Assembly: GCA_036004365.1 (NCBI GenBank)
Contig: DASYRN010000045.1
Span: 7,637 to 71,636, forward strand
From: Candidatus Binatia bacterium
GTDB taxonomy: Bacteria; Desulfobacterota; Binatia; UBA9968
DNA length: 64,000 nt
Direction of reading: 5' to 3'
The notes under the pieces: generated by a model
Told to the model about the DNA's origin: nothing
Seen by the model: only the letters and a program-made list of their open reading frames with translations
Database searches by the model: none
In this document: in pieces, positions 36,168 through 50,027 of the stretch
Position numbering within the stretch: position 1 is the first letter of the stretch
Layout: every line of letters starts with the position of its first letter
Program-made: the position numbers and the translations under genes

Positions 36168-36200
36168 GAGTCAAAAGGATTTGGGAACAAGAAAAGGACT

Positions 36201-36938
36201 TTAAGAAGGGTTCTTTCTTGTGGGAGGAACGATTCTAGCCTGTTCGATGGCGGGTTTGGCCGCTTCCTTATGAGGGCGAGCTAGCTGGTCTGGAGCGTCG
36301 GTCGTTTTAGGCTGACCTTCTATTGTTTGTCTTAGAATTTCCTCTTGCAGCGAACCTTTATTGTTCCCAGCTACGGGCTTTCCCGTCTCAATGTCGTCAT
36401 TGATGAAAACTGCGGCTGCAAAGACAGTCGTCCAGAGCCCATCTTTATTGCCAACGGCAGACTGAGTGATATTGGTAGTACGGACGATCTTGCCGGACAT
36501 CTTGAAAAGTTGCTCGCGCTCGTCCCAATCCAATTCAGGATCAAATTCAATCCCCAGGGTAGTCGCGAGCATGCTGGCGGCGAGGTCTTCCGCATATTCT
36601 CCCGCTCGTTCATCGGTTTCTCCAAACGAATGATGCTCGGAAAGATAACCGTGCATGGAAGAATCCGCGGGGATCGCCAAGCCGATAGAAGCTGCGATGA
36701 GACGATTTGGCTCGTTGTTACTTTCTCGATCATAAACGGCAAATACAATCTCTCCGGGCCGTAAGAGCTTTAATCCTTCCTCCTTGGAGATAATCTTGCA
36801 GGCTGGGGGATAGATGCTGGAGACGAGAACCAAATTGCAGTGGGCCAAGCCGGCAACCCGCAGCGCCATCTCAAAGGAGGCCAACCGTTCCTTATGAACG
36901 CCGACTCCTTTGGTGAAAAAAACTTTCTTAGGAACCAT
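36201..36938 (-). CDS. pdaD: pyruvoyl-dependent arginine decarboxylase (PdaD) with ~70-aa low-complexity C-terminal extension
   Basis: [42 protein letters not shown] matches the PdaD N-terminus including the self-cleavage serine region. Confidence 0.7.
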
Positions 36939-37076
36939 ATGTGGCTGCATTTTAACATGACGAAAATGAGCTGACAAGAAAATTTCTTATCCTGAGATTA
37001 TTTTTATTGACATTCGCTTGCTCATGATCTAGAGGCTTAACAAGATCACCAAAACAAGTTGGAGGAGGTATCCACG

Positions 37077-37346
37077 ATGACCAAGGCTGACCTCATCAAT
37101 GTAGTGGCCAGGGCGGCAAGGATGAGCAAGAGAGGAGCGGAAGACGCCATCAATGCAACCTTTGATGCTCTGACCAAAGGCATCAAGAAGGACAAACGGT
37201 TTCAGGTGCCGGCGTTCGGCACCTTCTCGGTCAGGGCACGGAAGGCAAGGCCGGGAAGGAATCCTCGGACGGGCGAGGCCATCACTATCAAGGCGAGTCG
37301 AACGGTGGGTTTCAAGCCGGCACCCAGGCTAAAGAAGGGCCTCTAG
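37077..37346 (+). CDS. hup: HU/IHF-family DNA-binding protein
   Basis: MTKADLINVVA...GFGTF.VR.R.AR.GRNP.TGE; GGAGGAGGT Shine-Dalgarno sequence; promoter-like TTGACA at 37011. Confidence 0.85.
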   Translation: MTKADLINVVARAARMSKRGAEDAINATFDALTKGIKKDKRFQVPAFGTFSVRARKARPGRNPRTGEAITIKASRTVGFKPAPRLKKGL

Positions 37347-37376
37347 AAGTCTGAGCTGATCCCGACAGGTTAGTTG

Positions 37377-37670
37377 CTATCCTTGGCGCCTGCGTGCTGA
37401 GCCCGCCATTGCACGGACACGCTTTTCATCGTTGTTACGAGCCTCGGCGCTCGCTTTCAACGACCCTATAAAGGGCTCCAGCACGGCAGTCTCTTTGCGT
37501 CTCCGCCCGGTCCGTCTAAGCCATGAATCTTCCCGGAAAAGTTCGGGGCTATCATAGCCGCGAACCACGGGCTTTTCCGGCACCTTTAGGTCTGGCTTTG
37601 GATCTGGGCAGAGATGCGGGAAGAGTTTTCCTATCGCATTTCTGTACCAGCCAATAAAGACTTCATACAT
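37377..37670 (-). CDS. hypothetical protein; a diverged partial paralog lies at 39935..40123
   Basis: ...KVPEKPVVRGYDSPELFREDSWLRR...; the other locus encodes VYRGYDSPQLFREDTLKRMRWL. Confidence 0.4.
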   Translation of the reverse strand: MYEVFIGWYRNAIGKLFPHLCPDPKPDLKVPEKPVVRGYDSPELFREDSWLRRTGRRRKETAVLEPFIGSLKASAEARNNDEKRVRAMAGSARRRQG

Positions 37671-38225
37671 GGCTCACGCAATCGTTACGATGCAGGCAAG
37701 TTCCAGCGCTAATAGACACCCAATTGCTATGTTGCCTACAATCGTCAATGGCTCTCCCATCCTACTGCAACGAAGCGAACCGGAAATTGTGCATCGATCG
37801 CACCGATGATCTTCGGGAACCGCGTCTTGTGTTTCGCGGTTCGCCGCTTTGACGGTCCGTGGCAAGAATCAAAGCCAAGGCGATGGCTTTCATGCAGCGC
37901 GGCAAGGAGTTAAAAAGACAAGTAATAAATGACAATCCGGTGCCGCTCTGATTGATCAGGTGGTAGGCACGGTCGACATTTGTCGTCACTTGCGAACGCT
38001 TATTGTACAGTCCATCATGCTTCGCGAACCTGAAACGACTGCGAGCGGTGCGGGAGCGGTGGCAGAGGGTCAACTGCCGCGTAGTGGGGAATGCAAAGGC
38101 TCAGTACCCGAGATTCCTTGAATGCGGCGAAGGCGGCCTGGCAGCAGGGGATCTGGGCATCGAAGTGGGTAACTTCGCTTGATCCTTATGACCAAGAGCC
38201 TGATGGGCGGGCGAAAACATTGGGT

Positions 38226-38648
38226 CTACGGCGTGGTCCAAACGATCGTTCCGTCTTTGCCGTAAAATTCCACCCCCGGGGTGTTGTTAGATCGTATTCC
38301 CAGTGCGATGCCCGTCTTTCCGTCCTGGCCGTCCAGTCTCAACGCCGGGTTACGACTAACCCCCATGCCCAAGGTGACACCGGCCTTTCCGTTCTTATCT
38401 CTTATCTCCAGGCCCATGTTCCCATTGGGGATGGCTCCGAGCACGGCGCTCACCGAGCCCGAACTGTCGCGCACGACGAACCTTTCAGCCTCGATGACCT
38501 TACCGACGTTGCCGGGTTCGGCCTGTCCCATGACCACCAATGCGACCGCCCCGAAGAGCGCCAAGGCGCCTATGCGTTTGATCCGCCGGTTTTCCTTTTC
38601 CAGGCGCTCCAGCCGTCTCAGCATCTGATCCATGCTAGGCTCGTTCAT
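38226..38648 (-). CDS. membrane-anchored protein with coiled-coil N-terminus and four DGxxGxxxLG beta repeats
   Basis: LRRLERLEKENRR then TM segment IGALALFGAVALVVMG; repeats VVRDSSGSVSAVLG, LEIRDKNGKAGVTLG, LRLDGQDGKTGIALG, EFYGKDGTIVW. The antisense 244-aa ORF is judged a shadow. Confidence 0.5.
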   Translation of the reverse strand: MNEPSMDQMLRRLERLEKENRRIKRIGALALFGAVALVVMGQAEPGNVGKVIEAERFVVRDSSGSVSAVLGAIPNGNMGLEIRDKNGKAGVTLGMGVSRNPALRLDGQDGKTGIALGIRSNNTPGVEFYGKDGTIVWTTP

Positions 38649-38913
38649 TATTCTCTCCTTTCTTACCGGGTGGTGTTTCAAGCTTACTCCCGTAGCCGCT
38701 TTAAACCAACTGGATTGGCCTCTAACAAAAAGGGCCGGGGCGGCTCTATCCTAACACTCCCGCGATCTCGGGGACAATTTAAAACTTCGGTGATCCTTTT
38801 GTGCGCACTCCTGCTGATTCTCTAGCCTTTGGCCCCTGGTGAATCTGCTTTTTGAGTGCGCTTCGAAAAGCGGCGCTCGACTGGTATAATAGTCATTCGA
38901 GAGGCAGAATTTT

Positions 38914-39543
38914 ATGAAGATGGCACTGTCGCGCGACTTTGGTATTTCCATTTTGATCGCCACGCTTGCTCTCACTGGCTGTTCCACCACTCAGATGATT
39001 GTCAGTGAATGGAGCAATCCCCGCTACGTCTCACCTTCGTTCAAGAGGATCATGGTGGGCGGTGTCGGCGAAGAAACCAGCATCCGGCGTAACTTCGAAG
39101 ACGAGTTCGTCGCTCAGCTCAGGGCAGCCGGCGTCGCGGCGTTGCCGAGCTACCGATATATGCCTGAGGATGAGAAGATTGACGAAAGCAAACTCAAACA
39201 AGCGGCACAAAGGGCCGGCACCGATGGCGCCATCCTCGCCCGTTCGGTAAGCGTCGAACAGAAAACGGAGTATGGCCCGAGCTATTACCCGCTTGCCGGC
39301 TTCGGCATCTTTGGTCGGAACGTCGGCGCCTCATGGTCGGGGCCTTACGGTGCACCAAGCGTCTCCCGCTACAACGTGTATACCTCGGAGACCACTCTGT
39401 ACGACGTCACCAAGAACGAGGTGGTCTGGACCGGCACCATCAAGACCACCGAGCCGGACAATATTAACACCGCGATCAAGGACTATGTCGGAACGGTCAT
39501 AAAAGCGCTCAACGAGAAGAATCTTCTCGGAGTTAAGAAATGA
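38914..39543 (+). CDS. DUF4136-like lipoprotein
   Basis: LALTGCS lipobox; about 209 aa. Confidence 0.6.
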   Translation: MKMALSRDFGISILIATLALTGCSTTQMIVSEWSNPRYVSPSFKRIMVGGVGEETSIRRNFEDEFVAQLRAAGVAALPSYRYMPEDEKIDESKLKQAAQRAGTDGAILARSVSVEQKTEYGPSYYPLAGFGIFGRNVGASWSGPYGAPSVSRYNVYTSETTLYDVTKNEVVWTGTIKTTEPDNINTAIKDYVGTVIKALNEKNLLGVKK

Positions 39544-39571
39544 GGGCCGGGTGGGACGGAAGGAAACAACC

Positions 39572-39883
39572 CTACGGAGCATGACTGAAATCCAGCCCGC
39601 CGATGTGTTGAACGGTATGGCCACAATGACCACGCAGTAACGCAAAGATCTGGCTGCAGAACGAGGTGTCATCAAATAAAAGACATCCCATATATGCGGC
39701 TCGTTCGTATTCAACGATTAAATAGCACCTGTTGGACGGTTGGAGTGTAGACAACATCACATCCTGCAGGATGCCGACCTCGCCTTTTGGGTGTTTGTTT
39801 TCTTCCCCACCTATCCAAGTCCAGGTCGGAGGCCAGTTGGGAAGACCTTGGTGAGACATGAGGGGATGATCTCGCAGCTTCAT
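39572..39883 (-). CDS. conserved hypothetical protein (MKLRDHPLMS...NWPP.W.W motif family)
   Basis: MKLRDHPLMSHQGLPNWPPTWTWIGGEE...; family name not recalled with confidence. Confidence 0.5.
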   Translation of the reverse strand: MKLRDHPLMSHQGLPNWPPTWTWIGGEENKHPKGEVGILQDVMLSTLQPSNRCYLIVEYERAAYMGCLLFDDTSFCSQIFALLRGHCGHTVQHIGGLDFSHAP

Positions 39884-39934
39884 GGTTGGTTCTAAATCTG
39901 TGGTCGATAAATGATTCATTTATCTAGATCTTCG

Positions 39935-40123
39935 TTACGCGGATCCGGGATCGTTGTCATCGTCGGTTGATGGTTTTCTAGAACGGACGTTGAATTGGAT
40001 CTTGGATAGTTCCGAGTCCAGCCACCGCATCCTTTTGAGAGTATCCTCTCGGAAAAGCTGTGGACTGTCGTAGCCGCGGTACACTTCACACCTCTGGGTT
40101 GTGACTCCAGGTAAACGGAAAGC
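39935..40123 (-). pseudogene. start-less remnant paralogous to 37377..37670
   Basis: Open frame AFRLPGVTTQRCEVYRGYDSPQLFREDTLKRMRWLDSELSKIQFNVRSRKPSTDDDNDPGSA* bounded by an upstream stop; about 72% nt identity to 37495-37570. Confidence 0.4.
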
Positions 40124-40348
40124 TTACACAATGAATCCGGCGTAGCTTGTCGGGCAACCCTATCAATGCGCAATGGCTGTGCCAGACCAGAAGATTCGTA
40201 TTATCGAATAGTTGTAAAAGTTCAGCCATGACGAGATGGGTAAAAAGGTAAGAGCTGGGAAGAAATTACGCGATAAGTAAGAGTAGAGACTGCAAATTAT
40301 AGCTGGAGGATTGCTCCTTTGGGCGTTTCCTCTAACGTGGGCTTTTCA

Positions 40349-40378
40349 CGTTTCGACTATTTTCGAAATGTCGAAACG
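40349..40378. repeat. F3 hairpin: CGTTTCGAC - TATTTTCGAAAT - GTCGAAACG
   Basis: Perfect 9-nt inverted repeat; the loop is itself palindromic around TTCGAA; upstream of the LLM gene. Confidence 0.4.
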
Positions 40379-40444
40379 ATGAGCGGCGCTTGTTCGGACA
40401 AGCGATTGACTCATTTGATGCGGCTGTGATAGCGCTCGAAAGCC

Positions 40445-41518
40445 ATGTCAGGCGAAAGTTTCCGTGGCGAGATCGGACTCCACTTTCCGTTGCATGTCCT
40501 TAACCGCTACTCTCTCCCCGAGCTGATCCGCCTTGCGGAACGCGCTGTGGAGGCACTTCGACAGTTCGGCTTCACGCAGATCTGGACCAACGATAATCTA
40601 GAGTATCGAAGCGTTTTGGCGAGCTCCGCTGCACTCGTGGCGCGGGTTCCGGTCAAGCTCGGAACGGCCGTCACCGTTCCCTATTTTCGCAACCCCATCG
40701 ATCTGGCCGCGGCGTTCGTCACTCTCTCCGAACTCACAAACGGGCAGGAAATCTCGCTTGGCCTGGGACCCGGCTCGAGGTCGATCCTGACCCATCAAGT
40801 CGATCGTGTGAAGCCGCTGATCATCATGGCCGAGTTGGCGACGGCTCTGCGGAAGCTCTTCGATGGAAAGGCAATCGGGCGCAATGAAATTCCGAATTTG
40901 GCTTCCTATTTTCACTTGAACGCGGAAAGTTACACTTTGCGCTTCAAGGCCCAGTCGCCGATCCGGCTTTACTATGGTCCAAGCCTGCTCAAGCCCGCGG
41001 TCTTAAATCTAATCGGATGCCACTTCGATGGGGTCATCCTGCAAACTCTGTATAGCGGGGCGGATATGGAGGCTACGCTCTCGAGTCTGAAACGTGCCCG
41101 CGCACAGTCCGCTCTAAGGGAGCCGCTAGCTAAAATCATGCTTATCAACGCGTCCGTTTCTCGCGACGGACGGGCGGCGAGAGAGCACGCCAAGCGCTTC
41201 GTGTCCCACATCATCGCCGGATGGCCGGACGACACCCTCCAAAGGAAAGGCATTGACCCAGCCTCCGTTCAGTCGGTGCGCCGAGCCTACGCTCAGAACC
41301 GCGGAGTGGATTATGCGGCGTCGCTGACTCCGGAGGAAGCGGTGGACCGTCTGGTCGTCGCTGGCACGCCGGAGCAGTGCATCGAACGGATCTCCGAACT
41401 CTTTTCCACCGGCGCGAAGCACGAATTCGGGCAGATCTTTATCGGCGTGCCACTTGGACCCGATGTCGGTGAAGTGATCGATATCTGGGCTAAAGAGATC
41501 CTGCCGGCTCTTTCGTAA
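40445..41518 (+). CDS. LLM-class (luciferase-like) flavin/F420-dependent oxidoreductase
   Basis: 357 aa TIM-barrel LLM pattern. Confidence 0.8.
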   Translation: MSGESFRGEIGLHFPLHVLNRYSLPELIRLAERAVEALRQFGFTQIWTNDNLEYRSVLASSAALVARVPVKLGTAVTVPYFRNPIDLAAAFVTLSELTNGQEISLGLGPGSRSILTHQVDRVKPLIIMAELATALRKLFDGKAIGRNEIPNLASYFHLNAESYTLRFKAQSPIRLYYGPSLLKPAVLNLIGCHFDGVILQTLYSGADMEATLSSLKRARAQSALREPLAKIMLINASVSRDGRAAREHAKRFVSHIIAGWPDDTLQRKGIDPASVQSVRRAYAQNRGVDYAASLTPEEAVDRLVVAGTPEQCIERISELFSTGAKHEFGQIFIGVPLGPDVGEVIDIWAKEILPALS

Positions 41519-41648
41519 TCCGAAAGATGTGGGCGAATTCAGATCTCCGCCTTGCCACACTCAGGCAGATGCGCGGTGAACTGTCTACCCCCGAAACCTG
41601 ACTTCTGAAACGCTGCGCCAAAACGGGAATGTAGAAGACTCGATGCGC

Positions 41649-42311
41649 TCAGTGGCCGGGGCTCTCCAAGACGGCGAGCGCGGCCTGGCAGCAGAGGATG
41701 TCCTGCTCGGCTCGGCTACCGCCGGCTACGCCGATGGCGCCGACGATCGCCGCGCCGTCAACGATCGCAATGCCTCCACCCGCCGGCATGATGCGACCGC
41801 GGTGCGAGATGACGAGGCTGCGAAACCAGGGGCGGCGCGCTTGGGGCGCCAACTCGGCGGTGGCCAGGTGAAAGGCGGCGGCCGTGTAGGCCTTATTGAA
41901 GGCGAGCTCTGCAGTCCTGGGCTCGGCTTGGTCCATCCGTCCGACGGCGATAGGAGTGCCAGCTTCATCTACGACCACGGCCGTCACCGCGATCCCCGCT
42001 CTTTCCGCGTAGGCGTGCGCTCGATGCACCATCTCCCATGCCTTGTCCACCGGAACCGGCCCAACTGCTGCTTTGTTCTTACGGAAGAAGCTGGCATTGA
42101 CCTCGATGGAGGCCTCATGCTCGGCGGGGAGCTTGGAATCGAGGAAGATCGCGTCCACCGGGCAGACGATCTCACACTGCTCGCACTCGATGCACACTTC
42201 GGGATCAACGTAGTGTTGTGGAGCCCCCGGGAGGGTATGAATGCAGGCGACCGGGCAGACGTCGACGCACGCCCCATCATTTGTACACAGCGAGGTGATA
42301 ATGTACGTCAC
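41649..42311 (-). CDS. fusion protein: 7Fe/8Fe-type ferredoxin N-terminus + GlcG/HbpS-like (DUF336) domain
   Basis: CTNDGACVDVCPVAC and CIECEQCEIVCP cluster motifs, then GIAVTAVVVDEAG...GGGIAIVDGAAIVGAIGVAGGSRAEQD DUF336 signature. Confidence 0.7.
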   Translation of the reverse strand: MTYIITSLCTNDGACVDVCPVACIHTLPGAPQHYVDPEVCIECEQCEIVCPVDAIFLDSKLPAEHEASIEVNASFFRKNKAAVGPVPVDKAWEMVHRAHAYAERAGIAVTAVVVDEAGTPIAVGRMDQAEPRTAELAFNKAYTAAAFHLATAELAPQARRPWFRSLVISHRGRIMPAGGGIAIVDGAAIVGAIGVAGGSRAEQDILCCQAALAVLESPGH

Positions 42312-42485
42312 GGAAATCCCTTCTACTAGGTAGCTTCAGAACTCCTCTGAACGTCATGCCAGCCGAGCCCGCGACAGCGGGCGAGAGCCGGAATCCAGGC
42401 AAATATAAGAAGTGCTGGATTTCCGCTTCCGCGGAAATGACGAACCCCGAGGGTCGATTCTTTGGCTGATTTCACACATAGGTGC

Positions 42486-43202
42486 CTATCCATCCGCCCT
42501 CAGCGGCAAATCGGTGCGAATGACGTTCGTCACATGGACGCGGGTCCCATATTTGGGAGTCACTAGCCTCCCGTTAGGGTTGAGAGTACCCAGCCCCGCC
42601 GCCGCGGCGAGCCGCTCGGCATTGGGATCCGGCGCTGCCGTGGCGCGAAAGCCAAGCTCTCTGATCCACGCGCTGAGAACGAAAGTGACGAACAGCCCGT
42701 TCTGCACCGGCACCTGGCCGCCGATGCCCGGGGCCTCTCGCGGGTCATAATCGGCTCGAACCGCACAGATGACGGCGAAGGGATACTGCTCGTCTTTCGA
42801 ATCCAATCTGGCGATACCCACCAGATCGGTGCCCAGGTAGCGGGCCAGCTCCTTGACATGGTTGGACGTGATCTCGGGCGTGTGGATGTCCGCTTTGGTC
42901 GGGAAGACGTTACCCTCGGGCGCACTGCGGATCAGCTCCGTCACCGAATTGGCCAGATCTTCCGGAGGCGTGTTGATGAAAAAATCCCAGTATGGGTCGC
43001 CTGCCCTGAGCCTGGTCGAAGGGTCGTGCTGGGAGCGTGTCTTCGGCCACGGGATTTTTAGCGGGCCCAGTCTGAGGGTCACTAAACGTCCCGCTTGACG
43101 AATCGGTTGGTATTCTCTTTCAGCGGAGCATAGTAGCCGATATCTCCCGCCACCTTTCCCGAGTTCGCCTCGTGCGCCGCGGTGCAACCGGCAACGGTAC
43201 AC
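42486..43202 (-). CDS. truncated paralog of the adjacent RdhA/QueG-like gene (corrinoid-domain part only; start uncertain)
   Basis: HVKELARYLGTDLVGIARLD and AAAGLGTLNPNGRLVTPKYGTRVHVTNVIRTDLPL align to the middle of 43082..44383; no C-terminal Fe-S motifs. The first ~40 codons of the track ORF overlap the neighbour and look non-coding. Confidence 0.45.
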   Translation of the reverse strand: MYRCRLHRGARGELGKGGGRYRLLCSAEREYQPIRQAGRLVTLRLGPLKIPWPKTRSQHDPSTRLRAGDPYWDFFINTPPEDLANSVTELIRSAPEGNVFPTKADIHTPEITSNHVKELARYLGTDLVGIARLDSKDEQYPFAVICAVRADYDPREAPGIGGQVPVQNGLFVTFVLSAWIRELGFRATAAPDPNAERLAAAAGLGTLNPNGRLVTPKYGTRVHVTNVIRTDLPLRADG

Positions 43203-44383
43203 GCGTGCTCTCCGGGCTTGATGCCGGAGTCATACCCAAGCCAGCGCACCCGCTTCTGACTCACCACGCCCCAGAAGCGATCATCGATCGCCTTCAGCGC
43301 GTGCACGAGCGCCGGTCGCGCGGGGATAGGGCAGGTGCGCAGAGCCCAGACCGTAAGGCTGCGCCACCAAACGTTGGGTTTGGTGAACGGGCAAACGGTG
43401 GCGCAGGTCAGGCAGCTCATCCAGTGGTCGTGGGTGTACGGCCGCAGCTTATAGCAGGTCAGCCAGTTGATCTTGTACTTCTCGACGCCGTTGAAGACCA
43501 CCTTATCGCCGAAGGGGATGCTGTTGGTGGGACAGTTGACAGCGCATTTGCGGCAAATCTTGCAGAAGTCCTCGACGCCTATGTCGACGGGTTGGTCCGG
43601 CACCAGCGGGAGGTCGGTCATGATGGGATCGGGCATGTGGATGCGGGCACCGAACTTCTCGTTGATGATGAGTCCGTTTCGGCCCAGTTCGCCCACGCCG
43701 GCGGCCAGCCCGGCGGCCTGAGGGTTCGCCACGCCCCGTAGAGCGGTGTAACCCAGCTCCTTGACGTAGCCCTCCAGGGCCTTGAGGATCATGACACCTT
43801 TCATTTGAGAGACGTGGTAGGCCGCATCGCCGACGTGATGGCGGTGCGCCTGAAGCTTATCGTGGTCCCATGCGGTCGTCGTGACGATGATGTAGGGGAA
43901 CTTCCGCACCAGCTCCTCGGGAGTGCTTTGTTGGTACGCGTCCTCTGCCGTGCCGTCTTGCACGTAGCGGTTGCCAGCGTACATGAAGGATGGATGCGCC
44001 CTGGCGATGGCGACGACGTCAGCGCCCATATAACGGGCGACGGCCTTGATGTGGCGCGTCATCGCCGCGGGATCCGTCACTGGCACCTGCTTCGAGTTGA
44101 CCTTGCCCTTGCTGGCTTGGTTAATCACCGTGGTCAGGAAATGTCTGCGATCGGCGAAATGGTTCGGGGCCGACACCCGGGTAAGTGGATCTTTGGAGAT
44201 CGTGTTGCGGTACCAGTTGAAAAGGGCCTTCCCCAGCTCACCGCGCTGGTTTTTGGGATGCGGCGACTGGTTCATATCGACATTAGCGACAGGCCCCACG
44301 ACACGGGCTGACCGGCCGAGGTTGGGTACGGGCGGGATATCCAAGCCTCTTTGATTAACCTTGTCTAGCGTTGCGTTCCCCAT
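43082..44383 (-). CDS. reductive dehalogenase-like / QueG-family corrinoid [4Fe-4S] protein, cytoplasmic (no Tat signal)
   Basis: Central AAGLAAGVGELGRNGLIINEKFGARIHM...TDLPL region then FCKICRKCAVNCP and CLTCATVCP ferredoxin motifs; 433 aa. Confidence 0.65.
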   Translation of the reverse strand: MGNATLDKVNQRGLDIPPVPNLGRSARVVGPVANVDMNQSPHPKNQRGELGKALFNWYRNTISKDPLTRVSAPNHFADRRHFLTTVINQASKGKVNSKQVPVTDPAAMTRHIKAVARYMGADVVAIARAHPSFMYAGNRYVQDGTAEDAYQQSTPEELVRKFPYIIVTTTAWDHDKLQAHRHHVGDAAYHVSQMKGVMILKALEGYVKELGYTALRGVANPQAAGLAAGVGELGRNGLIINEKFGARIHMPDPIMTDLPLVPDQPVDIGVEDFCKICRKCAVNCPTNSIPFGDKVVFNGVEKYKINWLTCYKLRPYTHDHWMSCLTCATVCPFTKPNVWWRSLTVWALRTCPIPARPALVHALKAIDDRFWGVVSQKRVRWLGYDSGIKPGEHACTVAGCTAAHEANSGKVAGDIGYYAPLKENTNRFVKRDV

Positions 44384-44405
44384 GGCGAATTTTCCCTTCT
44401 TTTAG

Positions 44406-44490
44406 AAAGGATGAAGTATGAAATCGGAAGGATGAAGTGACAATGGCGCATTGACAGATGTTTTTTTATCCCTTAGCCTTCATCCTTTAG
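44406..44490. repeat. F1 purine copy and F1 pyrimidine copy in inverted orientation (potential long hairpin) inside the minus-strand cluster
   Basis: GAAAGGATGAAGTATGAAATCGGAAGGATGAAGTG ... TATCCCTTAGCCTTCATCCTTTAG. Confidence 0.5.
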
Positions 44491-44592
44491 TTCTCCTGTA
44501 TGTTTGCCACGAAAACCGACTCTGATGCAACTCCTTATATGTCATATGTCCCGTGCGCCTAGAGGGAGCCGGCGTCTGACGTGCATCCCATC

Positions 44593-44991
44593 TCAGGCAT
44601 AGGAGGCGAGAGCGGCTTCAGCGCAGCGCTGGTCCTGCTCTTCAGTACCACCCGCTACGGCGATGGCGCCCACAACATTGCCGCCCTCCACGATGGGCAA
44701 TGCGCCTGCACCGGGCATGATTCGACCGTTGCTGGAGACGACCAGGCTTTGAAACCATGTCTGCCCGGCAACTCCCGCCAACTCCTTGGTAGGCTGCTGG
44801 AAACTCGCTGCCGTGTAGGCTTTGTTGAGAGCAATTTCCACCGTAATGGGACGAGCACGGTCCATACGGCCTAGCGCGATCATACGGCCACTGTGGTCAA
44901 CGACCACAGCGGTGACTGCGATATCCAACTGCGTGGCCTCAAGGTGGGCGGTTCGCACCATCTGAATCGCTTTTTCTCCGGGGATAGCCAT
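44593..44991 (-). CDS. GlcG/HbpS-like (DUF336) protein, stand-alone
   Basis: LDIAVTAVVVDHSGRMIALGRMD...GGNVVGAIAVAGGTEEQDQRCAEAAL. Confidence 0.75.
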   Translation of the reverse strand: MAIPGEKAIQMVRTAHLEATQLDIAVTAVVVDHSGRMIALGRMDRARPITVEIALNKAYTAASFQQPTKELAGVAGQTWFQSLVVSSNGRIMPGAGALPIVEGGNVVGAIAVAGGTEEQDQRCAEAALASYA

Positions 44992-45175
44992 CGTCGTTCG
45001 CGGTCCTCCTTGTCGTCGAAGTGGCGCCTAGTGTAACAGGTAATGCTAACCAACAGTCAAGCACTTACAGGCTGTTGAAAGCGCCGCGAGTCAGTGGTTC
45101 CCACAAGAGGGTAAATCCAAGCAAGGAGCGCGTACTAAGGGATGAAGGATGAAATGCCTAATCAGTTCATTGCCT

Positions 45176-46579
45176 TTAAGGTTTATCGTTCGGGACGAGG
45201 AGTCGGGCGAGCTTCCCGGCGTCTTCGAGCCTGTCTAGACTTTCAATCGTATCTTGGAGTTCGTCGATACGGGACGGCGAAAGGACTCGCGAGGCAAGCA
45301 GGCGAAATTTTTCGCTGACCTCGACGCGTGTCATGGGATGCTTATCACTTCCCTTGGCGTGAAGCACTTTGGCCCCGTAGCTCTTCCCGTCTCTCGTCTC
45401 GACCTCTAGAATCACGCCGTGGCGCCCTTCGTCTCCTAGGGCCTCGAGCTCGGTATCTTCAACCACCTCGATCTTTTTCGTCGTATTCAGGACGTCAGCC
45501 CTGTTTATGGATTTCTCCGTCACCTGATCGACGAAGAAGTCCCGGTCGTGGAGCAACACCGCAACACAATAAAGAAGATTCATTTGCGCCGTGGTCAGGC
45601 TGTTCGGCACATAAGGCCAACCGACATGAAGCTTGGTGGCGCGGGTTGTGCGGATGGTGATTTTTTCCGCGTTCTCCGCGCTTACGTCGGGGTGCTCACG
45701 GAGAATTTTCTTGAGCGCATCGATCGAAGTGTGATTGCTGCCGCAGCAAGGATAAGGTTTGAAGCCGACGTTCAGGGCCTCGAACCGTTCGCCAAGATCT
45801 CGCGTCAGGTGGGATAGGTTGGGATTGTCGCAGAAGGTCGAGCAGAAGCCTCCATAAGGCGCTTCGAGAATATCCTCGATTCCGGTAAATCCCTTAGCGG
45901 CGAGCAGTGCTCCGTACACACCTGCCTGTGATGCCCTACCAGGGTGCATGCGCTTTACCATCGAAGCTTGTTGGGCAGCCATAAGGCCCGCGGCCTGAGT
46001 GCCAGCGATTCCCAAGGCGTGGAGTGTCTCTGACGGATCAAGTCCAAGCATTTTTGCCGCCGCGGCTCCAGCAGCGAAGGTTCCTGAGGTGGCCGTAGGG
46101 TGGAAGCCCCGGCGCAACTGGGAAGCGCCCCCTGTCATGGCCACGCGGCAGCCTGCCTCATAACCAGCGATTACAGCCGTAAGGAATCTCTTGCCGTCTG
46201 TCGCGCCGTCGTAGCGTACCAGGGCATCTGCCGCAGGTATCGCTTCGGCGCCCGGGTGGATGACGCCGACGCGGTGAAGATCGTCCATTTCAAAGCTGTG
46301 GATCAAGGTACCATTGGCCAACGGCGCGCTCGTGCTGGGAACCTCTGCGCCATCGCCCCAGAGAAGAGCCCCTTTGCCCGCGCCTAGCTCCTTTGCAAAG
46401 CCTGTGATGATTTTTCCCCAAGGAAGGGTCGAGCCGAAAAGGGCGCATCCGAGAGAATCGAGTAGGCAGAGCTTGACGTGTGAGATGACCTCTCCGGGAA
46501 TATCACTGTACGAAAGCGACGATACAAACTGCGCGAGAGCGCGGGTGGGCGAGGTCTCTGGGCTTTGACTCGTTAACAT
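45176..46579 (-). CDS. MmgE/PrpD-family protein
   Basis: 467 aa; N-terminal ...FVSSLSYSDIPGEVISHVKLCLLDSLGCALFGS pattern of MmgE/PrpD. Confidence 0.85.
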   Translation of the reverse strand: MLTSQSPETSPTRALAQFVSSLSYSDIPGEVISHVKLCLLDSLGCALFGSTLPWGKIITGFAKELGAGKGALLWGDGAEVPSTSAPLANGTLIHSFEMDDLHRVGVIHPGAEAIPAADALVRYDGATDGKRFLTAVIAGYEAGCRVAMTGGASQLRRGFHPTATSGTFAAGAAAAKMLGLDPSETLHALGIAGTQAAGLMAAQQASMVKRMHPGRASQAGVYGALLAAKGFTGIEDILEAPYGGFCSTFCDNPNLSHLTRDLGERFEALNVGFKPYPCCGSNHTSIDALKKILREHPDVSAENAEKITIRTTRATKLHVGWPYVPNSLTTAQMNLLYCVAVLLHDRDFFVDQVTEKSINRADVLNTTKKIEVVEDTELEALGDEGRHGVILEVETRDGKSYGAKVLHAKGSDKHPMTRVEVSEKFRLLASRVLSPSRIDELQDTIESLDRLEDAGKLARLLVPNDKP

Positions 46580-46664
46580 GAGGTTCGATCAACCGGATAG
46601 ATTTTGCCCATCCTCTTATTGTATACGTGGTTCTGTCAAGGCCCAGGAACACGAGGGAGGAAAA

Positions 46665-47735
46665 ATGCGCCTGCAAAAGTGGTCTCTGGTTGGGGTGATC
46701 CTGGCGATCTTCGCTTCTCCCCATCGCAGCTATGCACAGTCGGCCGGAGAGATCCTCAAGCGCTACGAAGGGCTGAGCCCAAAGCAGCGCCAGGAAAAGC
46801 TCGTTGAGGGCGCGCGGAAGGAAGCAGCAGTCGTGATTTACAGTTTTACCGCAGTCGACCAGCTCACGCCATTACTTGAAGAATTCTACAAGAAATACCC
46901 GTTTGTTAAACCAGAGCACTACAGGGCCAACGCCTCAGGCGTTTTTAATAAGTTTATCACCGAGGCGCGCGCCGGCCGGACCCTGGCCGATGTGCTCGAT
47001 ATCTCGGCGGGCGAAGCCTATACCCTACGCCAGATGGGACTCGTCGATCCTTATTCTTCTCCCTTTAGAGAAGGGATTCCAAAAGATTTTCTGGACGAGC
47101 GAGGGTATTGGGCCGCGCATTACCACTTCGTAGTCGCCTTGGGCGCTAATACCAGAGCCATCAGCGCCTCGGAGGCACCGAGAAGCTACGGAGAGCTACT
47201 CAACCCGAAATGGAAAGGGCGCTTCTCGCTGGATCCCGCTGATCAAGATCTTTTTGGTGCGCTGCTGATGTATTGGGGGAAAGAGAAGACGCTTGACTAT
47301 TTTAAAAATCTCGCAAAACTCGAACCCCGGATGGTCACCGGCCACACGCAACAAGCCAATCTCGTTGGGTCGGGCGAGATTCACATGGCTCCGTGGCTTT
47401 ACGGCTATCGTCCGCTTCAATTAAAGGACGAGGGAGCTCCGGTTGAGGTCTTTCTCTTTGATCCTGTTCTCACCAACCCCGCTTATCTTTTGCTGGCGAA
47501 GAATTCTCCTCACGCTCACGCGGCCGCGCTCCTGATCGATTGGGCTCTTTCCGCTGACGGAGGGATGAAGTTTTTTGCCGAGAAATTCGGTCGAACGCCT
47601 ACTCGGCCGGGACTCAAGGAGAGGTTTCCACAACTTCGGGTGGAGAAATACCTCGTCGTCAAACCCGAAGTCGTCGGGCCAAACTTCAAAGAGTTCACCA
47701 AGGTCTATAACGAGATTTTTGCGATTGGTAAGTAG
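46665..47735 (+). CDS. periplasmic solute-binding protein, ABC family 1 (Fe3+/polyamine-type), orphan
   Basis: Signal peptide; SBP_bac_1-like; paralog of 50047..51153; GGAGG Shine-Dalgarno sequence. Confidence 0.7.
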   Translation: MRLQKWSLVGVILAIFASPHRSYAQSAGEILKRYEGLSPKQRQEKLVEGARKEAAVVIYSFTAVDQLTPLLEEFYKKYPFVKPEHYRANASGVFNKFITEARAGRTLADVLDISAGEAYTLRQMGLVDPYSSPFREGIPKDFLDERGYWAAHYHFVVALGANTRAISASEAPRSYGELLNPKWKGRFSLDPADQDLFGALLMYWGKEKTLDYFKNLAKLEPRMVTGHTQQANLVGSGEIHMAPWLYGYRPLQLKDEGAPVEVFLFDPVLTNPAYLLLAKNSPHAHAAALLIDWALSADGGMKFFAEKFGRTPTRPGLKERFPQLRVEKYLVVKPEVVGPNFKEFTKVYNEIFAIGK

Positions 47736-47741
47736 GGAGGT

Positions 47742-48677
47742 TTATTTTTTCCCGCGAAAACGGAACAGTTCGACGAGCTTTCGCCGAACCACCTCCTCGC
47801 CGCCCGGCAGGATGTCAAACTTTGTTGTGTTATCCATCTTTTGCATTATTTTCCGGCCTTCGTCATCTTGATGCATCGAAAGCAAGGTCTCCTGAAGACG
47901 CTTGGCCACCTCCGGATGCAAACCCCTGCGAATAGAAACGAGATGGCGTGGAACCGTCTCCGTTTCGGCCAGGATAGCGATCTCGGCCCTTGCTTTCTCG
48001 TCAAGCGTGGCGTAGTCGTCATCGCTAAACGCACCAGCCATCACCTTCTTTGAGAGAAGGAGGTCAGCGATATTTTTGTGTGTAGAGGCAAAGATGTAGC
48101 CAATCTCCTTAGGAGAAACCTTGGCTTCGAGCCCGGGTTTTTCGGTAAGTCTGAATCCCTTCCTTAGAAGGAAGACCTTTGGCAAAAGATAGGCTGAAGT
48201 AGACCCGGGATCCTCGAAGGCGATGATCTTACCCTGTAGGTCTTCAAGCCGGGCTATGCCGCTCTCTTTGCTCGTGGCAAGGATGCCTCGATATTCGCCC
48301 TTCCCCCCCTTCCAACGCCTGAGCAACAATCTCGCGGACCCTTGCCTGTTGATGAGATAGGTCGGATAGGGGCTTTCCATATAAAAATCAACCCGCTTCT
48401 CCTCAAGCAGCTTTGCGAGTTGTAGCGCTGTCGGAGCCACAACAACCGTTCCTTTGATCTCGGAAGTGGAGGAGAGTTTTCGCGCGACATAACCCACAAA
48501 ATCGCGGAAATGCTCCTCGATCTCCTTCTGATGTATTTGAGAGACGAGTCCTAAAGAGATCGTTTTAACTGTGCCGGTCTCCGGCGCCTGTCCGGCAGCT
48601 TCAAGCTCAGGGGTTAGGAGAGAAACAAGAGCGGCAACGGCAAATATGAGGGAGGCATGATGTGTGTGTCTCTTCAT
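47742..48677 (-). CDS. PhnD/SsuA-like periplasmic substrate-binding protein, orphan
   Basis: Signal peptide; PhnD-like fold pattern. Confidence 0.65.
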   Translation of the reverse strand: MKRHTHHASLIFAVAALVSLLTPELEAAGQAPETGTVKTISLGLVSQIHQKEIEEHFRDFVGYVARKLSSTSEIKGTVVVAPTALQLAKLLEEKRVDFYMESPYPTYLINRQGSARLLLRRWKGGKGEYRGILATSKESGIARLEDLQGKIIAFEDPGSTSAYLLPKVFLLRKGFRLTEKPGLEAKVSPKEIGYIFASTHKNIADLLLSKKVMAGAFSDDDYATLDEKARAEIAILAETETVPRHLVSIRRGLHPEVAKRLQETLLSMHQDDEGRKIMQKMDNTTKFDILPGGEEVVRRKLVELFRFRGKK

Positions 48678-48965
48678 GACGACCTGTCACAGCCGGGAAT
48701 TTGCCGCGGGAGAACCCGAGAGCAATGGCGAACGACAAAGCCCACGCTACGTATATATAAACGAGGCAAACTTGGCAAGAATGAAAACAGATTCGGAAGC
48801 ACCTGGTGTCGCAAATCCTCGCCAAACGCCGAAACGACTCCGGGGAGGCCGGCTGTTTCACACCGGTGTATGAGGTCAGTGGACAGGCACGGAGAGGTTG
48901 TAATATAAGCAGTCTTGTCGTGGCTGCCGGGCGATTGCGGCGACACCAAAATCGGAGGTGAGATC

Positions 48966-50027
48966 ATGTGGTACAAAGCGAAGGCGCTCGATTTATTCGG
49001 AGTGGCGTTGGGATTCGGCTGCTTAGTGATTTTTCCCAAAGACGCTTTCTCTCAGGCCGGCTACTACCAGGGGAAGACCATCACGATTGTTCGGGGCGGG
49101 GAACCGGGGGGCTCAGGGGATATGCAGGCCAGGGCGTTGATACCGTTCCTCAAAAAACATATTCCCGGGAATCCGAATATTATCGTGGAGAACATGCCCG
49201 GCGCCGCCGGGATGAAAGCGGTCAACCATATTTATACGGCGAAGCCCGATGGGCTCACGATCACCGCCGTCGGCTCCGGCCTCGCCGCAGGCCCGATCCT
49301 CGGCTTGCCGGGAGTAAAATACGACATCGATAAGCTGATTTATCTGGGGTCGACGGAGCATGGCGATCCCTATGTCTTTTTAAGCCGGAAAGAAGCCGGT
49401 TTCGACAGTCTGGAAAAGCTGCGTGCTGCGTCGGGGATCAGGCTCGGTGCGCAAACCGTGGGCCACGCGGTTTATATTAGCGGGCGTATCTTCGCGCATC
49501 TTCTGGGTCTCAAGGATCCCAAGGTCGTTGTCGGCTTTGGAGGACCAGAGCTCGACATCGCTTTGGCCCGAGGCGAGGTTGACGCCAGAGCGAACAGCGC
49601 GGATACGGTGGTGCGCAGAAACGCCGATGCGCTGGAAAAAGGTCAGTTCAACATTCACGCCACCATCACGATTCCAAAAGGGAAGTTTCACCCGCGCTTC
49701 GCGAACGTCCCCGATGTGGAGACGCTTGCTAAAAACGACAAAGAGCGCCAACTGGTAAATCTGTTCCGCGCGTTTCTCTATCCGCGTTGGCCTTACGTGC
49801 TGCCGCCAGGCACCCCCGCGGAAATCGTCAAGGTCCTGCGCGAAGGGATGGTCAAGGCCTTTAAGGACCCGGGTTTTCACCAGGAATTTAAAAAACTCAT
49901 GGCGAGCGATCCATCCCCTCTCACCGGAGAAGAGGTGGAGACATCCATTAGAGAGCTGCCGCGCGATCCCGAGGTCATTGGACTATATAAAAAGATGGCC
50001 GAGCATGGACCGCTGCCGCCGCGCTAG
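48966..50027 (+). CDS. Bug/TctC-family tripartite tricarboxylate transporter substrate-binding protein, orphan
   Basis: IVRGGEPGGSGDMQARALIPFLKKHIPGNPNIIVENMPGAAG matches the TctC motif. Confidence 0.75.
   Translation: MWYKAKALDLFGVALGFGCLVIFPKDAFSQAGYYQGKTITIVRGGEPGGSGDMQARALIPFLKKHIPGNPNIIVENMPGAAGMKAVNHIYTAKPDGLTITAVGSGLAAGPILGLPGVKYDIDKLIYLGSTEHGDPYVFLSRKEAGFDSLEKLRAASGIRLGAQTVGHAVYISGRIFAHLLGLKDPKVVVGFGGPELDIALARGEVDARANSADTVVRRNADALEKGQFNIHATITIPKGKFHPRFANVPDVETLAKNDKERQLVNLFRAFLYPRWPYVLPPGTPAEIVKVLREGMVKAFKDPGFHQEFKKLMASDPSPLTGEEVETSIRELPRDPEVIGLYKKMAEHGPLPPR

Follow-up and report, generated by a model that had tools for sequence, protein, structure and literature searches.

A conserved four-gene cassette in a Candidatus Binatia genome joins an RdhA-like protein with a core paralog, a ferredoxin-DUF336 fusion and a second DUF336 protein

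The window analyzed here, a 64,000-nucleotide stretch of a Candidatus Binatia genome, carries on its minus strand a cluster of genes for a DUF336 protein (GlcG1), an enzyme resembling reductive dehalogenases (RdhA), a paralog of the RdhA core (ORF2) and a ferredoxin-DUF336 fusion (Fd-GlcG). The cluster is genuine and its clustering lies well above chance expectation; almost every one of 29 species-representative genomes, and another 4 long contigs, show the same gene order. This partnership of an RdhA-like enzyme, ORF2, ferredoxin and DUF336 is previously undescribed, and no link of DUF336 or GlcG with a reductive dehalogenase was found in the literature searched. The cassette is widespread in uncultured soil bacteria. 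On balance, we favor its interpretation as a self-contained, laterally spread operon whose genes encode a soluble reductase of several subunits, from the RdhA/QueG superfamily, that works by the mechanism proposed below. The four ORFs were recovered at or near the positions given by the first-pass annotation:

44593..44991, minus strand: GlcG1, stand-alone DUF336/HbpS-like protein, 132 aa (PF03928, E=3.9e-29)
44384..44592, minus strand: GlcG1-RdhA spacer, 209 nt, GC 0.46
43082..44383, minus strand: RdhA, putative RdhA-superfamily (class III cobalamin) catalytic subunit, 433 aa (TIGR02486, Fer4_7/Fer4_16)
42486..43082, minus strand: ORF2, RdhA-core paralog without Fe-S domain, 198 aa, probable GTG start
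42312..42485, minus strand: ORF2 to Fd-GlcG spacer, 174 nt
41649..42311, minus strand: Fd-GlcG, 7Fe ferredoxin-DUF336 fusion, 220 aa (Fer4; PF03928, E=3.3e-28)

The GlcG1-RdhA spacer holds three copies of the repeat element TTCATCCTT and a single weak sigma-70-like match. The spacer ahead of Fd-GlcG, longer here than the 11-134 nt observed in relatives with gene calls, contains a perfect 8-bp hairpin (ATTTCCGC-GGAA-GCGGAAAT, 42419-42438) that occurs once in the window. Neither cob/btu genes nor a B12 riboswitch were found within the window.

The four genes are co-inherited in Binatia, Methylomirabilota/Rokubacteria, Chloroflexota and Acidobacteriota with protein identities of 65-95%, and dN/dS values indicated purifying selection on each of them. 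Cross-phylum identity of 65-90% is unusual among catabolic RdhAs. In informative loci, GlcG1 was located upstream of RdhA in 22 of 24, ORF2 was present in 27 of 28, and Fd-GlcG was found downstream of ORF2 in 26 of 27. Both DUF336 genes are co-conserved with RdhA, which by the refuting condition that the first-pass annotation had set for itself speaks in its favor. A sister clade (45-55% identity) retains RdhA, ORF2 and Fd-DUF336; stand-alone GlcG1 is absent from this clade and from locus L022, so it is not indispensable. Beyond the four genes no neighbor recurred across the compared loci, and no regulator, transporter or pathway gene was consistently linked to the cassette across them; nor were cob/cbi/btu genes or B12-dependent enzymes linked to it in the contexts examined. 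The PrpD and LLM flanks of the window are not conserved beside the cassette in relatives, where LLM genes adjoin it in a minority of loci only and are not orthologous to those of the window, so the earlier argument for a catabolic island from LLM and MmgE/PrpD neighbors fails. Genes for Amidohydro_2 (LigW-type decarboxylase family), LigXa-like Rieske and LigB proteins are linked to the cassette in a subset of loci.

Fd-GlcG combines an FdxA-like 7Fe [3Fe-4S][4Fe-4S] ferredoxin domain (aa 1-~80, to 84; 42072-42311) with a DUF336 domain (aa 89-213; 41673-42047). The former matches the pattern C-x(5-7)-C-x3-C-P ... C-x2-C-x2-C-x3-C-P through ligands C9, C15, C19-P, C40, C43, C46 and C50-P, the cysteines being invariant in 121 sequences. 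It scored 71 bits (9e-19) against the Bacillus schlegelii 7Fe ferredoxin 1bc6 and 72.7 bits against the NCBIfam FdxA equivalog, under the cut-off of 125 as expected for a fusion protein. The outgroup RdhA P0367 (39% identity) is directly followed by a stand-alone 84-aa ferredoxin that is 39% identical to the Fd half. Based upon this unfused ferredoxin of like type in the equivalent position, Fd-GlcG is proposed to be a dedicated electron donor to RdhA.

Among the cassette genes conservation is highest for GlcG1, with orthologs 77-95% identical and a dN/dS of 0.02-0.08; its NCBI record, HEV8341701.1, is designated 'heme-binding protein' and its 90% cluster comprises 1000 members. Matches to PF03928 reached 101.7 bits for GlcG1 and 98.7 bits for Fd-GlcG (Pfam gathering threshold 25 bits), and the two DUF336 modules are mutually 45-59% identical. 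The closest solved structures to GlcG1 are OrfY 2a2l (73.6 bits), NahX 9jth and PduO-C 5cx7, which are also matched by the DUF336 half of Fd-GlcG. DUF336 proteins form octamers or tetramers. DUF336 makes up PduO's C-terminal domain, and HbpS and PduO are reported to bind both heme and cobalamin (PMC4923194, PMC8153426), which documents the connection that was drawn earlier between DUF336 and corrinoid enzymes. His18, the heme ligand of PduOC, is conserved in neither module; it aligns with Ile9 of GlcG1 and, by extrapolation from an alignment that starts at residue 96 (chain residue 22), with approximately Trp92 of Fd-GlcG.

The 433-aa enzyme is RdhA-like rather than a QueG according to its sequence, in agreement with the first-pass assignment. 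It scored 147.5 bits against the NCBIfam RDH model TIGR02486, under the cut-off of 160.35, and PF13486 was not detected even at E<=10. A PDB sequence search returned NpRdhA at 110 bits and PceA at 104-116 bits, versus 34-41 bits for QueG chains, and Foldseek with the predicted model gave 2.9e-14, 1.4e-13 and 3e-7 for NpRdhA, PceA and QueG, respectively. The model (pLDDT 85-97 at residues ~90-130 and 84-92 at 200-230; poor outside the core, pLDDT 57.9) contains the nitroreductase-like fold of the RdhA-type corrinoid-binding core, for which binding is predicted. The cassette enzymes form a separate clade of the RdhA superfamily (bootstrap support 60/60). RdhA has a unique N-terminal 75 residues and no vestigial core fused in cis; fused degenerate-core forms are present in other clades (P0378, P0384). 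Neither a Tat RR motif nor a TM segment was found in RdhA (highest 19-residue hydropathy 0.81), and no RdhB-like or small membrane-protein gene is conserved near the cassette in the contexts examined, consistent with the cytoplasmic, non-Tat enzyme initially described. A PDOR domain was not found in RdhA either, the ferredoxin of the cluster being the Fd-DUF336 fusion instead.

RdhA contains eight cysteines for two [4Fe-4S] clusters (C274/277/280/284 and C310/324/327/331), invariant in 121 sequences, as well as an extra invariant motif, C395-x4-C400-x3-H404. Its signature active-site motif is Q178-A-H-R-H-x-x-G-D-x-x-Y189-H190-x-S-Q193. By alignment, the column of the catalytic Tyr (PceA Y246, NpRdhA Y426) is an invariant Gln193 in the cassette family, and that of its Arg/Lys partner (PceA R305, NpRdhA K488) is an invariant His249; the canonical Tyr was present in 82 of 101 aligned superfamily sequences and R/K in 82 of 101 (about 81%). 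The substitution K488Q abolishes NpRdhA activity (PMC7565698). An invariant A-Y189-H190 pair lies one helical turn ahead of the canonical Tyr column, and the column of PceA N272 and QueG D130 is an invariant Arg216. Arg314 aligns with NpRdhA R552 and Tyr189 with NpRdhA S422, both of which are ligands of the substrate hydroxyl in NpRdhA (PMC7565698). An organic substrate may be bound, as suggested by the polar residues that are invariant in the pocket (Y189, H190, R216, H249 and R314).

It is possible, though we consider it the less likely case, that the enzyme belongs to the canonical catabolic reductive dehalogenases of organohalides and has DUF336 proteins simply as a kit for B12 delivery and electron supply. 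NpRdhA and PceA are the top sequence and fold matches, the enzyme is cytoplasmic without Tat signal or RdhB, R314 is the counterpart of NpRdhA R552, a ferredoxin is co-conserved, cobalamin binding has been reported for DUF336 proteins (PMC4923194, PMC8153426), and aromatic-catabolic genes occasionally adjoin the cassette. However, Gln and His replace the catalytic Tyr-Arg/Lys dyad, the RDH HMM score is under its cut-off with PF13486 absent, cross-phylum conservation is unusually high, and catabolic neighbors are not consistent. Thus, of the dehalogenase-like enzyme of the first-pass annotation the likeness to RdhA stands, while the dehalogenase label is uncertain given that the canonical proton-donor dyad is absent by alignment.

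MMACHC (CblC) and MMADHC (CblD) function in eukaryotic B12 trafficking. A comparable role in corrinoid processing, repair or trafficking, in which the corrinoid or its upper ligand would be the target of RdhA, ORF2 would stand to RdhA as CblD does to CblC, and DUF336 would pass on the cofactor, appears quite improbable for the cassette. A universal substrate would account for the 75-95% cross-phylum identity, the lost substrate-protonating dyad and the absent catabolic and regulatory neighbors; furthermore, the PduO adenosyltransferase, for which cofactor hand-on has been proposed, carries DUF336 as a fusion (PMC4923194). Yet no cob/cbi/btu gene or B12-dependent enzyme is linked in the contexts examined, no B12 riboswitch lies within the window, and the invariant polar pocket suggests a bound organic substrate. 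The likeness to CblC/CblD is a common nitroreductase-like fold only, CblC being without an Fe-S domain.

The reading of the enzyme as a true QueG (tRNA epoxyqueuosine reductase) is rejected by HMM scores and domain content and retains a negligible probability. The superfamily is common to both, P0115 is labelled QueG by one source, and the Tyr-His pair resembles the strictly conserved D-Y-H motif of QueG, with its Tyr above the corrin and its catalytic Asp at St D130 (PMC4646009). The protein scored only 50.2 bits against TIGR00276, whose equivalog cut-off is 200, and QueG structures rank far under RdhAs. Neither DUF1730 (PF08331) nor the C-terminal helical-repeat region, which is QueG-specific (PMC4646009), gave a Pfam match in RdhA at E<=10, and the alignment of the family profile with E. 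coli QueG covers residues 152-301 only (core end and Fe-S part), at 28 bits.

ORF2 is a conserved, selected and translationally coupled paralog of the RdhA core, resembling a subunit more than the truncated paralog first annotated at 42486-43202. That ORF (238 aa) has no internal ATG. Its plausible start is a GTG (43082-43080) whose first G is also the G of the TAG that ends the upstream RdhA gene, yielding 42486-43082 and 198 aa. In the window and the 4 long contigs the RdhA stop and ORF2 start are separated by a 1-nt overlap or a 3-5 nt gap. This length agrees with the 187-221 aa assigned to orthologs by gene callers, and P0121 is 198 aa and 99% identical; the matches listed, the best 120 of >1500 database homologs, are 181-221 aa. 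The predicted structure of ORF2 has the fold of the RdhA cobalamin-binding core, and ORF2 is homologous to its partner RdhA; it appears to have derived by duplication within the cassette RdhA clade. An Fe-S domain and the active-site YH motif were sought in ORF2 and both were absent, suggesting, together with the core fold, a separately encoded counterpart of the NpRdhA vestigial domain, which contains no cobalamin and imitates the interface of the PceA dimer (PMC10463259). We therefore propose ORF2 as a candidate pseudo-dimer partner, a 'vestigial' domain encoded in trans. A pseudogene without function, left as a decaying piece of an RdhA duplicated in tandem, as the missing domain and motif and a frameshifted tandem RdhA copy in sister locus L042 might indicate, is exceedingly improbable and is rejected by conservation and selection data, ORF2 being intact, of equal length and with an equal end point in the 27 loci across phyla, represented by its many database homologs, under a dN/dS of 0.09-0.31 comparable to neighbor genes, invariant at 50 residues in an alignment of 55 sequences, and coupled at its start codon to the RdhA stop.

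The cassette shares with NpRdhA/BhbA-type enzymes (PDB 4RAS, 6ZY1) solubility, the lack of a Tat signal and RdhB, a nitroreductase-like corrinoid-binding core with two [4Fe-4S] clusters, the R552-equivalent Arg, and a catalytic core accompanied by a cofactor-less duplicate. It differs in that the degenerate core is a separate downstream polypeptide rather than a fusion at the N-terminus, Gln/His take the place of Tyr426/Lys488 and a Tyr-His pair lies one turn upstream, the ferredoxin is 7Fe and DUF336-fused, two DUF336 proteins are obligate neighbors, and identity to NpRdhA is ~27%, in a separate clade. The NpRdhA gene cluster has separate ferredoxins, and 'truncated' members depend on ferredoxins with genes of their own (PMC10463259). 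In Desulfobacterota and Chloroflexota, 'simplified cytosolic' RdhA-like proteins (~395 aa) are similar in length, cytosolic location, lack of a cis vestigial domain, and phyla; they are treated as without any vestigial domain (PMC12219181), whereas, relative to that published description, the cassette supplies one in trans along with DUF336/ferredoxin partners. PceA-type enzymes (PDB 4UQU, 8Q4H) share the core fold, Fe-S motifs and a dimeric architecture that an RdhA-ORF2 pair would mimic, while the cassette is without the Tat signal, RdhB anchor, Tyr246/Arg305 dyad and respiratory context. PduO-C, OrfY, NahX, EfgA and HbpS share the PF03928 domain and a recurrent B12-dependent or redox-repair genomic context; in the cassette, DUF336 is instead found with an RdhA-type enzyme as partner and a 7Fe ferredoxin as fusion.

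In the favored multi-subunit reductase, RdhA and ORF2 would form a heterodimer with a single active site, mimicking the PceA homodimer or the fused NpRdhA pseudo-dimer. Electrons would pass from a general cellular reductase to the 7Fe ferredoxin domain, through the two [4Fe-4S] clusters and on to a base-off corrinoid, which once reduced would reduce a small substrate sitting above the cobalt, with protonation by the relocated Tyr189-His190 and His249 and not by the canonical Tyr-Lys/Arg dyad. The DUF336 modules of GlcG1 and Fd-GlcG may assemble as a hetero-oligomer that tethers the ferredoxin to the enzyme and/or handles or re-reduces the corrinoid. We infer corrinoid binding, complex formation, the substrate and the DUF336 role alike from comparison. 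Among substrate classes, a (halo)phenolic or other anionic aromatic acid that occurs commonly and naturally in soil is most likely, and reductive dehalogenation, while not established, is the leading candidate for the reaction. An unlikely reading is that the cassette adds a branch to class III cobalamin enzymology, a heteromeric RdhA-like reductase with a remodelled site that is non-dehalogenating or corrinoid-directed, in which DUF336 would serve the corrinoid as a dedicated chaperone or reactivate it by reduction, in connection with a 7Fe ferredoxin. If such a branch is real, DUF336 (PduO-C, GlcG, OrfY, NahX) would at last gain a biochemical role.

An ORF listing over positions 36000-50000 of the window, followed by family scans (Pfam, NCBIfam), yielded the four minus-strand ORFs named in the first-pass annotation and confirmed their domains.

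Genes of the cassette, in order
44593-44991, minus strand: GlcG1, a stand-alone DUF336/HbpS-like protein of 132 aa (PF03928, E=3.9e-29)
43082-44383, minus strand: RdhA, an RdhA-superfamily (class III cobalamin) enzyme of 433 aa (TIGR02486, 147.5 bits; Fer4_7/Fer4_16 matches)
42486-43082 after start correction, minus strand: ORF2, an RdhA-core paralog of 198 aa, with a GTG start at 43082-43080
41649-42311, minus strand: Fd-GlcG, 220 aa, an FdxA-like 7Fe ferredoxin (aa 1-84) fused to DUF336 (aa 89-213, E=3.3e-28)

ORF2 had been described as a truncated RdhA paralog extending over 42486-43202. Its relationship to the RdhA core holds, but its extent does not: the ORF 42486-43202 contains no internal Met in the DNA reading, and the start moves to a GTG at 43082 whose first G also closes the TAG stop codon of the 433-aa RdhA gene. 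The resulting 198 aa equals the gene-caller length for orthologs, including P0121, a 99% identical homologue also of 198 aa. Exact-sequence look-up identified GlcG1 as HEV8341701.1; Fd-GlcG is HEV8341698.1 (database name 'heme-binding protein'), and the ORF2 entry on the same contig as GlcG1's is P0529 (HEV8341699.1, 'hypothetical protein'), in a 90%-identity cluster with P0121.

RdhA narrowly missed the cut-off of the TIGR02486 'reductive dehalogenase' model (160.35 bits), while its score against the QueG (epoxyqueuosine reductase) model TIGR00276 was 50.2 bits against a cut-off of 200. Among solved structures, sequence search gave 104-116 bits for the catabolic reductive dehalogenase NpRdhA and the respiratory PceA versus 34-41 bits for QueG, and Foldseek ranked the RdhA model in the same order (NpRdhA 3e-14, PceA 1e-13, QueG 3e-7). 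DUF1730 and PF13486 gave no match in RdhA even at E<=10. Given these HMM scores, the domains that the protein lacks and the order of its fold matches, identification as QueG was rejected, in agreement with the RdhA-like assignment made at first pass; the cytoplasmic, non-Tat location also proposed there is borne out by a sequence containing neither a Tat motif nor a hydrophobic segment. All eight Fe-S cysteines of RdhA are invariant. On sequence evidence the redox chain would work like that of an RdhA, in a protein that falls narrowly short of the HMM cut-off and lacks the catalytic dyad.

A search of 1.84 billion representative proteins returned only 64 representatives at E<1e-30, an isolated, tight group. 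Identity to RdhA falls in steps, from 52-55% (P0361, P0363, P0364) to 39% (P0367) and then to generic RdhAs at 30-35%. A neighbour-joining tree (100 superfamily sequences, 238 columns, 60 bootstraps) recovered the family, the family with its 52-55% relatives, and these with P0367, each in 60/60 bootstraps; the placement of this clade relative to the NpRdhA group received 0/60. The protein belongs to a distinct clade of the superfamily.

The four genes recur together. RdhA has >1000 database homologs, and each component of the cassette is represented by >1000 database sequence clusters at 90% identity. The best 120 RdhA clusters all match at 74-90% identity, mostly bear the name 'reductive dehalogenase', and carry source MAG names of Binatia, Acidoferrales, Nitrospirales and Chloroflexota. 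A scan in which a single genome represented each GTDB species gave 29 loci, all from MAGs, in Binatia/'Deltaproteobacteria', Rokuibacteriota/Methylomirabilota, Chloroflexota and Acidoferrum. The hosts are dominant, uncultured soil lineages (Binatia, Rokubacteria, Chloroflexota, Acidobacteria), to which source names add Nitrospirales and Udaeobacter. Window proteins were mapped onto six-frame ORFs of the 29 loci.

Conservation of partner genes beside RdhA (identity to the window over all loci with a match)
GlcG1, upstream of RdhA: 22/24 informative loci, 77-95% identity
ORF2, directly after RdhA: 27/28 informative loci, 52-85% identity
Fd-GlcG, after ORF2: 26/27 informative loci, 57-85% identity

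Both DUF336 genes are thus co-conserved with RdhA, in line with the pairing noted at first pass. In L021 a solute-binding-protein gene is inserted, displacing GlcG1; L022 has no GlcG1 within 6 kb, and in L020 the gene order differs. The same four genes are present on four more long contigs for which gene calls were already available, and there the RdhA stop and ORF2 start are joined by a 1-nt overlap or a 3-5 nt gap. An overlap of 1 nt or a gap of a few nucleotides is usual for translationally coupled subunits. All-against-all ORF clustering of the 29 loci found no other gene family co-conserved with the cassette in more than about five closely related loci; nor is any regulator, transporter or pathway gene conserved beside it. 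The cassette forms a unit complete in itself, set in surroundings that vary between loci. Its GC content in the window is 0.606 versus 0.542, with GC3 of 0.75-0.79 for RdhA, ORF2 and Fd-GlcG, 0.64 for GlcG1 and 0.58-0.68 for neighbouring genes; this composition, together with 65-95% identity across phyla, is consistent with lateral spread. No close relatives were found on sequenced plasmids of cultured bacteria, where the best matches were 24-28% identical.

ORF2 has no detectable Pfam domain. Profile-profile comparison aligned its residues 32-197 with RdhA 76-264 (99.4% probability, 31% identity), its C-terminal end coinciding with the exact start of the RdhA Fe-S domain. The family has >1500 members, and an alignment of 55 sequences is invariant at 50 positions; in relatives the protein is always about 190-200 aa and ends at the same terminal residue. 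For nine loci compared with the window, Nei-Gojobori dN/dS was 0.09-0.31 for ORF2, similar to RdhA (0.09-0.20) and Fd-GlcG (0.09-0.24); GlcG1 was lower, at 0.02-0.08. A pseudogene was rejected on these values and on conservation in 27/28 loci. The best-scoring stretch of ORF2 in NpRdhA falls in the N-terminal domain (residues 75-215), a vestigial duplicate of the cobalamin-binding core that cannot bind cobalamin and imitates the contact between the two monomers of PceA (PMC10463259; PMC12219181). ORF2 lacks the Tyr-His pair of RdhA and carries a 5-residue deletion of the 'AHRHH' segment. Since it retains the clade-specific Gln/His (Q127 aligned with RdhA Q193, H183 with H249), is no more similar to fused N-terminal domains of other RdhAs than to catalytic cores, and is under purifying selection, we read ORF2 as an independent, clade-internal duplicate, now the cofactor-poor partner in a putative heterodimer. 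Such a two-gene heterodimer would be a third dimer architecture, beside the PceA homodimer and the fused pseudo-dimer of NpRdhA.

Two variable inserts were observed in ORF2 and among its homologs (P0137, P0128), both in low-confidence model regions. The N-terminal 'PSTRLRAG' (window 42999-43022, residues ~21-28) is tandemly repeated in some homologs (in P0137 as PSNRLRAGPSNRLRAGPSTRLRAG) and missing from most; the second, of low complexity, follows residue ~95.

Active-site residues were mapped by profile alignment to PDB sequences and a 101-sequence MAFFT alignment.

Active-site positions and their equivalents in the RdhA family
PceA Tyr246 / NpRdhA Tyr426, proton donor: Gln193, invariant
PceA Arg305 / NpRdhA Lys488, Tyr partner: His249, invariant, one residue inserted ('HMPDP')
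PceA Asn272, active site: Arg216
NpRdhA Arg552, binds the substrate hydroxyl: Arg314, kept
NpRdhA Ser422, binds the substrate hydroxyl: Tyr189, invariant

The Tyr column holds Tyr, and the Arg/Lys column R or K, in 82/101 aligned sequences each. Tyr426 and Lys488 form the catalytic dyad of NpRdhA, in which K488Q is inactive and S422, K488 and R552 are the substrate-hydroxyl ligands (PMC7565698); the Tyr is the one residue common to PceA, NpRdhA and QueG, and in QueG it forms part of a D-Y-H motif (PMC4646009). In the RdhA family an invariant Tyr189-His190 pair occurs one helical turn upstream, at the NpRdhA Ser422 position. The distance to the ELGY motif is 18 residues whether counted from Gln193 or from the Tyr of PceA and NpRdhA, which argues against a register error as the cause of the missing Tyr and for a catalytic Tyr that would have been relocated. 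The sister clade (45-55% identity) keeps 'AHRH..GD..YH' without Gln193, which points to the His-rich loop and Tyr-His pair as the probable functional signature. An invariant C395-x4-C400-x3-H404 in the C-terminal tail (window 43172-43201), outside both Fe-S motifs, is also present in P0367 ('CKIPGCVAKH') but missing from P0361 and P0385; this motif may bind a further metal or make contact with a partner.

From one end to the other, the N-terminal half of Fd-GlcG can be aligned with 7Fe ferredoxins (1bc6, 9e-19), and its seven ligand cysteines are invariant in 121 sequences. The 39% outgroup P0367 has a stand-alone 84-aa ferredoxin directly 3', 39% identical to the ferredoxin domain of Fd-GlcG, with DUF336 and ORF2 neighbours absent; this unfused downstream gene supports a role of the ferredoxin as dedicated electron donor, with fusion to DUF336 occurring later. 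P0385, a 32% relative, lies in another context with none of the partner genes. In the sister-clade cassette L042, identities to the window are 51% (RdhA), 47% (ORF2) and 45% (Fd-DUF336), and there is no stand-alone GlcG; the association of RdhA, ORF2 and Fd-DUF336 therefore predates the tight family, and GlcG1 either joined later or is dispensable. L042 (4591-8758) carries two tandem RdhA genes, 74% identical to each other, the second of which shifts frame after about residue 316, by pseudogene formation or assembly error.

The relatives nearest to the DUF336 domains are K. pneumoniae OrfY (2a2l), NahX, the PduO C-terminal domain (PduOC), EfgA and HbpS. PduOC is an octamer that binds redox-active heme via His18 of adjacent monomers and is required if propanediol is to be used efficiently; for HbpS and PduO, cobalamin binding is reported as well, and EfgA is a formaldehyde sensor (PMC4923194, PMC8153426). 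His18 aligns with Ile9 of GlcG1 and, by extrapolation from an alignment that begins at residue 96, with about Trp92 of Fd-GlcG; the ligand is not conserved, and a PduOC-style heme site was therefore rejected for both proteins. The two modules are 45-59% identical to each other versus 57-95% to their own orthologs, which fits a predicted hetero-oligomer that would tether the ferredoxin to the enzyme or handle corrinoid. The literature searched contained no paper joining DUF336 or GlcG with reductive dehalogenases.

Alternatively, the system may process corrinoid itself, by analogy with CblC/CblD and PduO. This would account for both the extreme conservation and the lost dyad, but no linked cob/btu gene or B12-dependent enzyme was present in the contexts examined, and neither a B12 riboswitch nor any other Rfam RNA was found in the 64-kb window.

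The first-pass annotation had placed the cassette in a catabolic island with LLM oxidoreductases and MmgE/PrpD. MmgE/PrpD homologs occurred only in L008 and L009 (32% identity, 3.6 kb distant), and an HMM search, in which the window's own LLM was not included, placed LLM genes beside or near the cassette in 8 of the 32 cassette loci listed (the 29 GTDB loci plus L037-L039); the window LLM aligns only partially with these (26-28% identity) and is not orthologous. With so sparse a distribution and no family common to more than about five of the 29 loci, the catabolic-island argument is unsupported and was rejected. The window LLM (40445-41518, plus strand) is Mer-like and F420-type, convergent with the cassette and 130 nt from its end; its best NCBIfam match, 5,10-methylenetetrahydromethanopterin reductase, scores 127.7 bits, below that model's cut-off. 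Convergent LLM genes of a different lineage abut the cassette in L006, L023 and L038/L039.

Near-identical Amidohydro_2 (PF04909) genes, as a tandem pair, follow the cassette in Binatia and Acidobacteriota loci (L003 7706-10148; L040 13163-15456; L018 12406-13859), and single copies lie near it in L025, L037, L020 and the P0098 contig. This family takes in LigW-type hydroxybenzoate decarboxylases. The link is genuine for a subset alone, six of the searched loci and one further contig, and the window has no such gene; a pathway step that some hosts add downstream may be represented here. Genes for LigXa-like Rieske oxygenases and for LigB adjoin the cassettes of L038 and L042 (in L042 a LigXa-like gene is directly 3' of the cassette). 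TctC-type binding proteins are often nearby, and are very numerous in genomes of these lineages. Retention of Arg314, several invariant Arg/His and the aromatic-type neighbours weakly favours a small anionic (halo)phenolic substrate.

Repeated and structured elements were observed between the genes. The 9-mer TTCATCCTT occurs 10 times in the window (0.83 expected; 0/100 shuffles reach 10), within a longer pyrimidine-rich intergenic element, roughly CCCTTATCC-TTCATCCTT-TATC. Four copies (44407-44415, 44428-44436, 44479-44487, 45145-45153) lie in two intergenic regions, upstream of GlcG1 and RdhA, and the others are at 7433, 16690, 17922, 18119, 26975 and 27862. In this Binatia genome the element could serve as a promoter component or regulator site, or be a repeat present throughout the genome. 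The ORF2/Fd-GlcG spacer (42312-42485) is 174 nt in the window versus 11-134 nt in relatives with gene calls, and contains a perfect 8-bp hairpin, ATTTCCGC-GGAA-GCGGAAAT (42419-42438), followed by a second GC-rich hairpin. No T-run follows the first, and its single occurrence in the window led to its rejection as a repeated element.

The closest known systems are the NpRdhA/BhbA-type catabolic dehalogenases, with which the cassette has in common a soluble redox architecture and a cofactor-less duplicate core. Unlike in those enzymes, the duplicate core is a separate gene, the catalytic residues differ, the ferredoxin is of the 7Fe type fused to DUF336, and there is an obligate DUF336 partner. 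Abundant, sharply bounded and open to experiment, the cassette carries wrong names in databases; those corrected are 'hypothetical protein' (ORF2), 'heme-binding protein' (both DUF336 genes) and the occasional 'QueG'. To our knowledge, the role of DUF336 beside B12 enzymes such as PduO has gone unexplained for two decades, and the cassette is the cleanest genetic handle so far on its function. We know of only two activities for class III cobalamin enzymes, organohalide reduction and epoxyqueuosine reduction, and of very few members studied biochemically. If the cassette encodes a dehalogenase, it would be a large and so far unrecognised sink of the organohalogens that occur naturally in soil, and would deliver protons in a different way; if not, it would represent a third chemistry for the class III cobalamin family.
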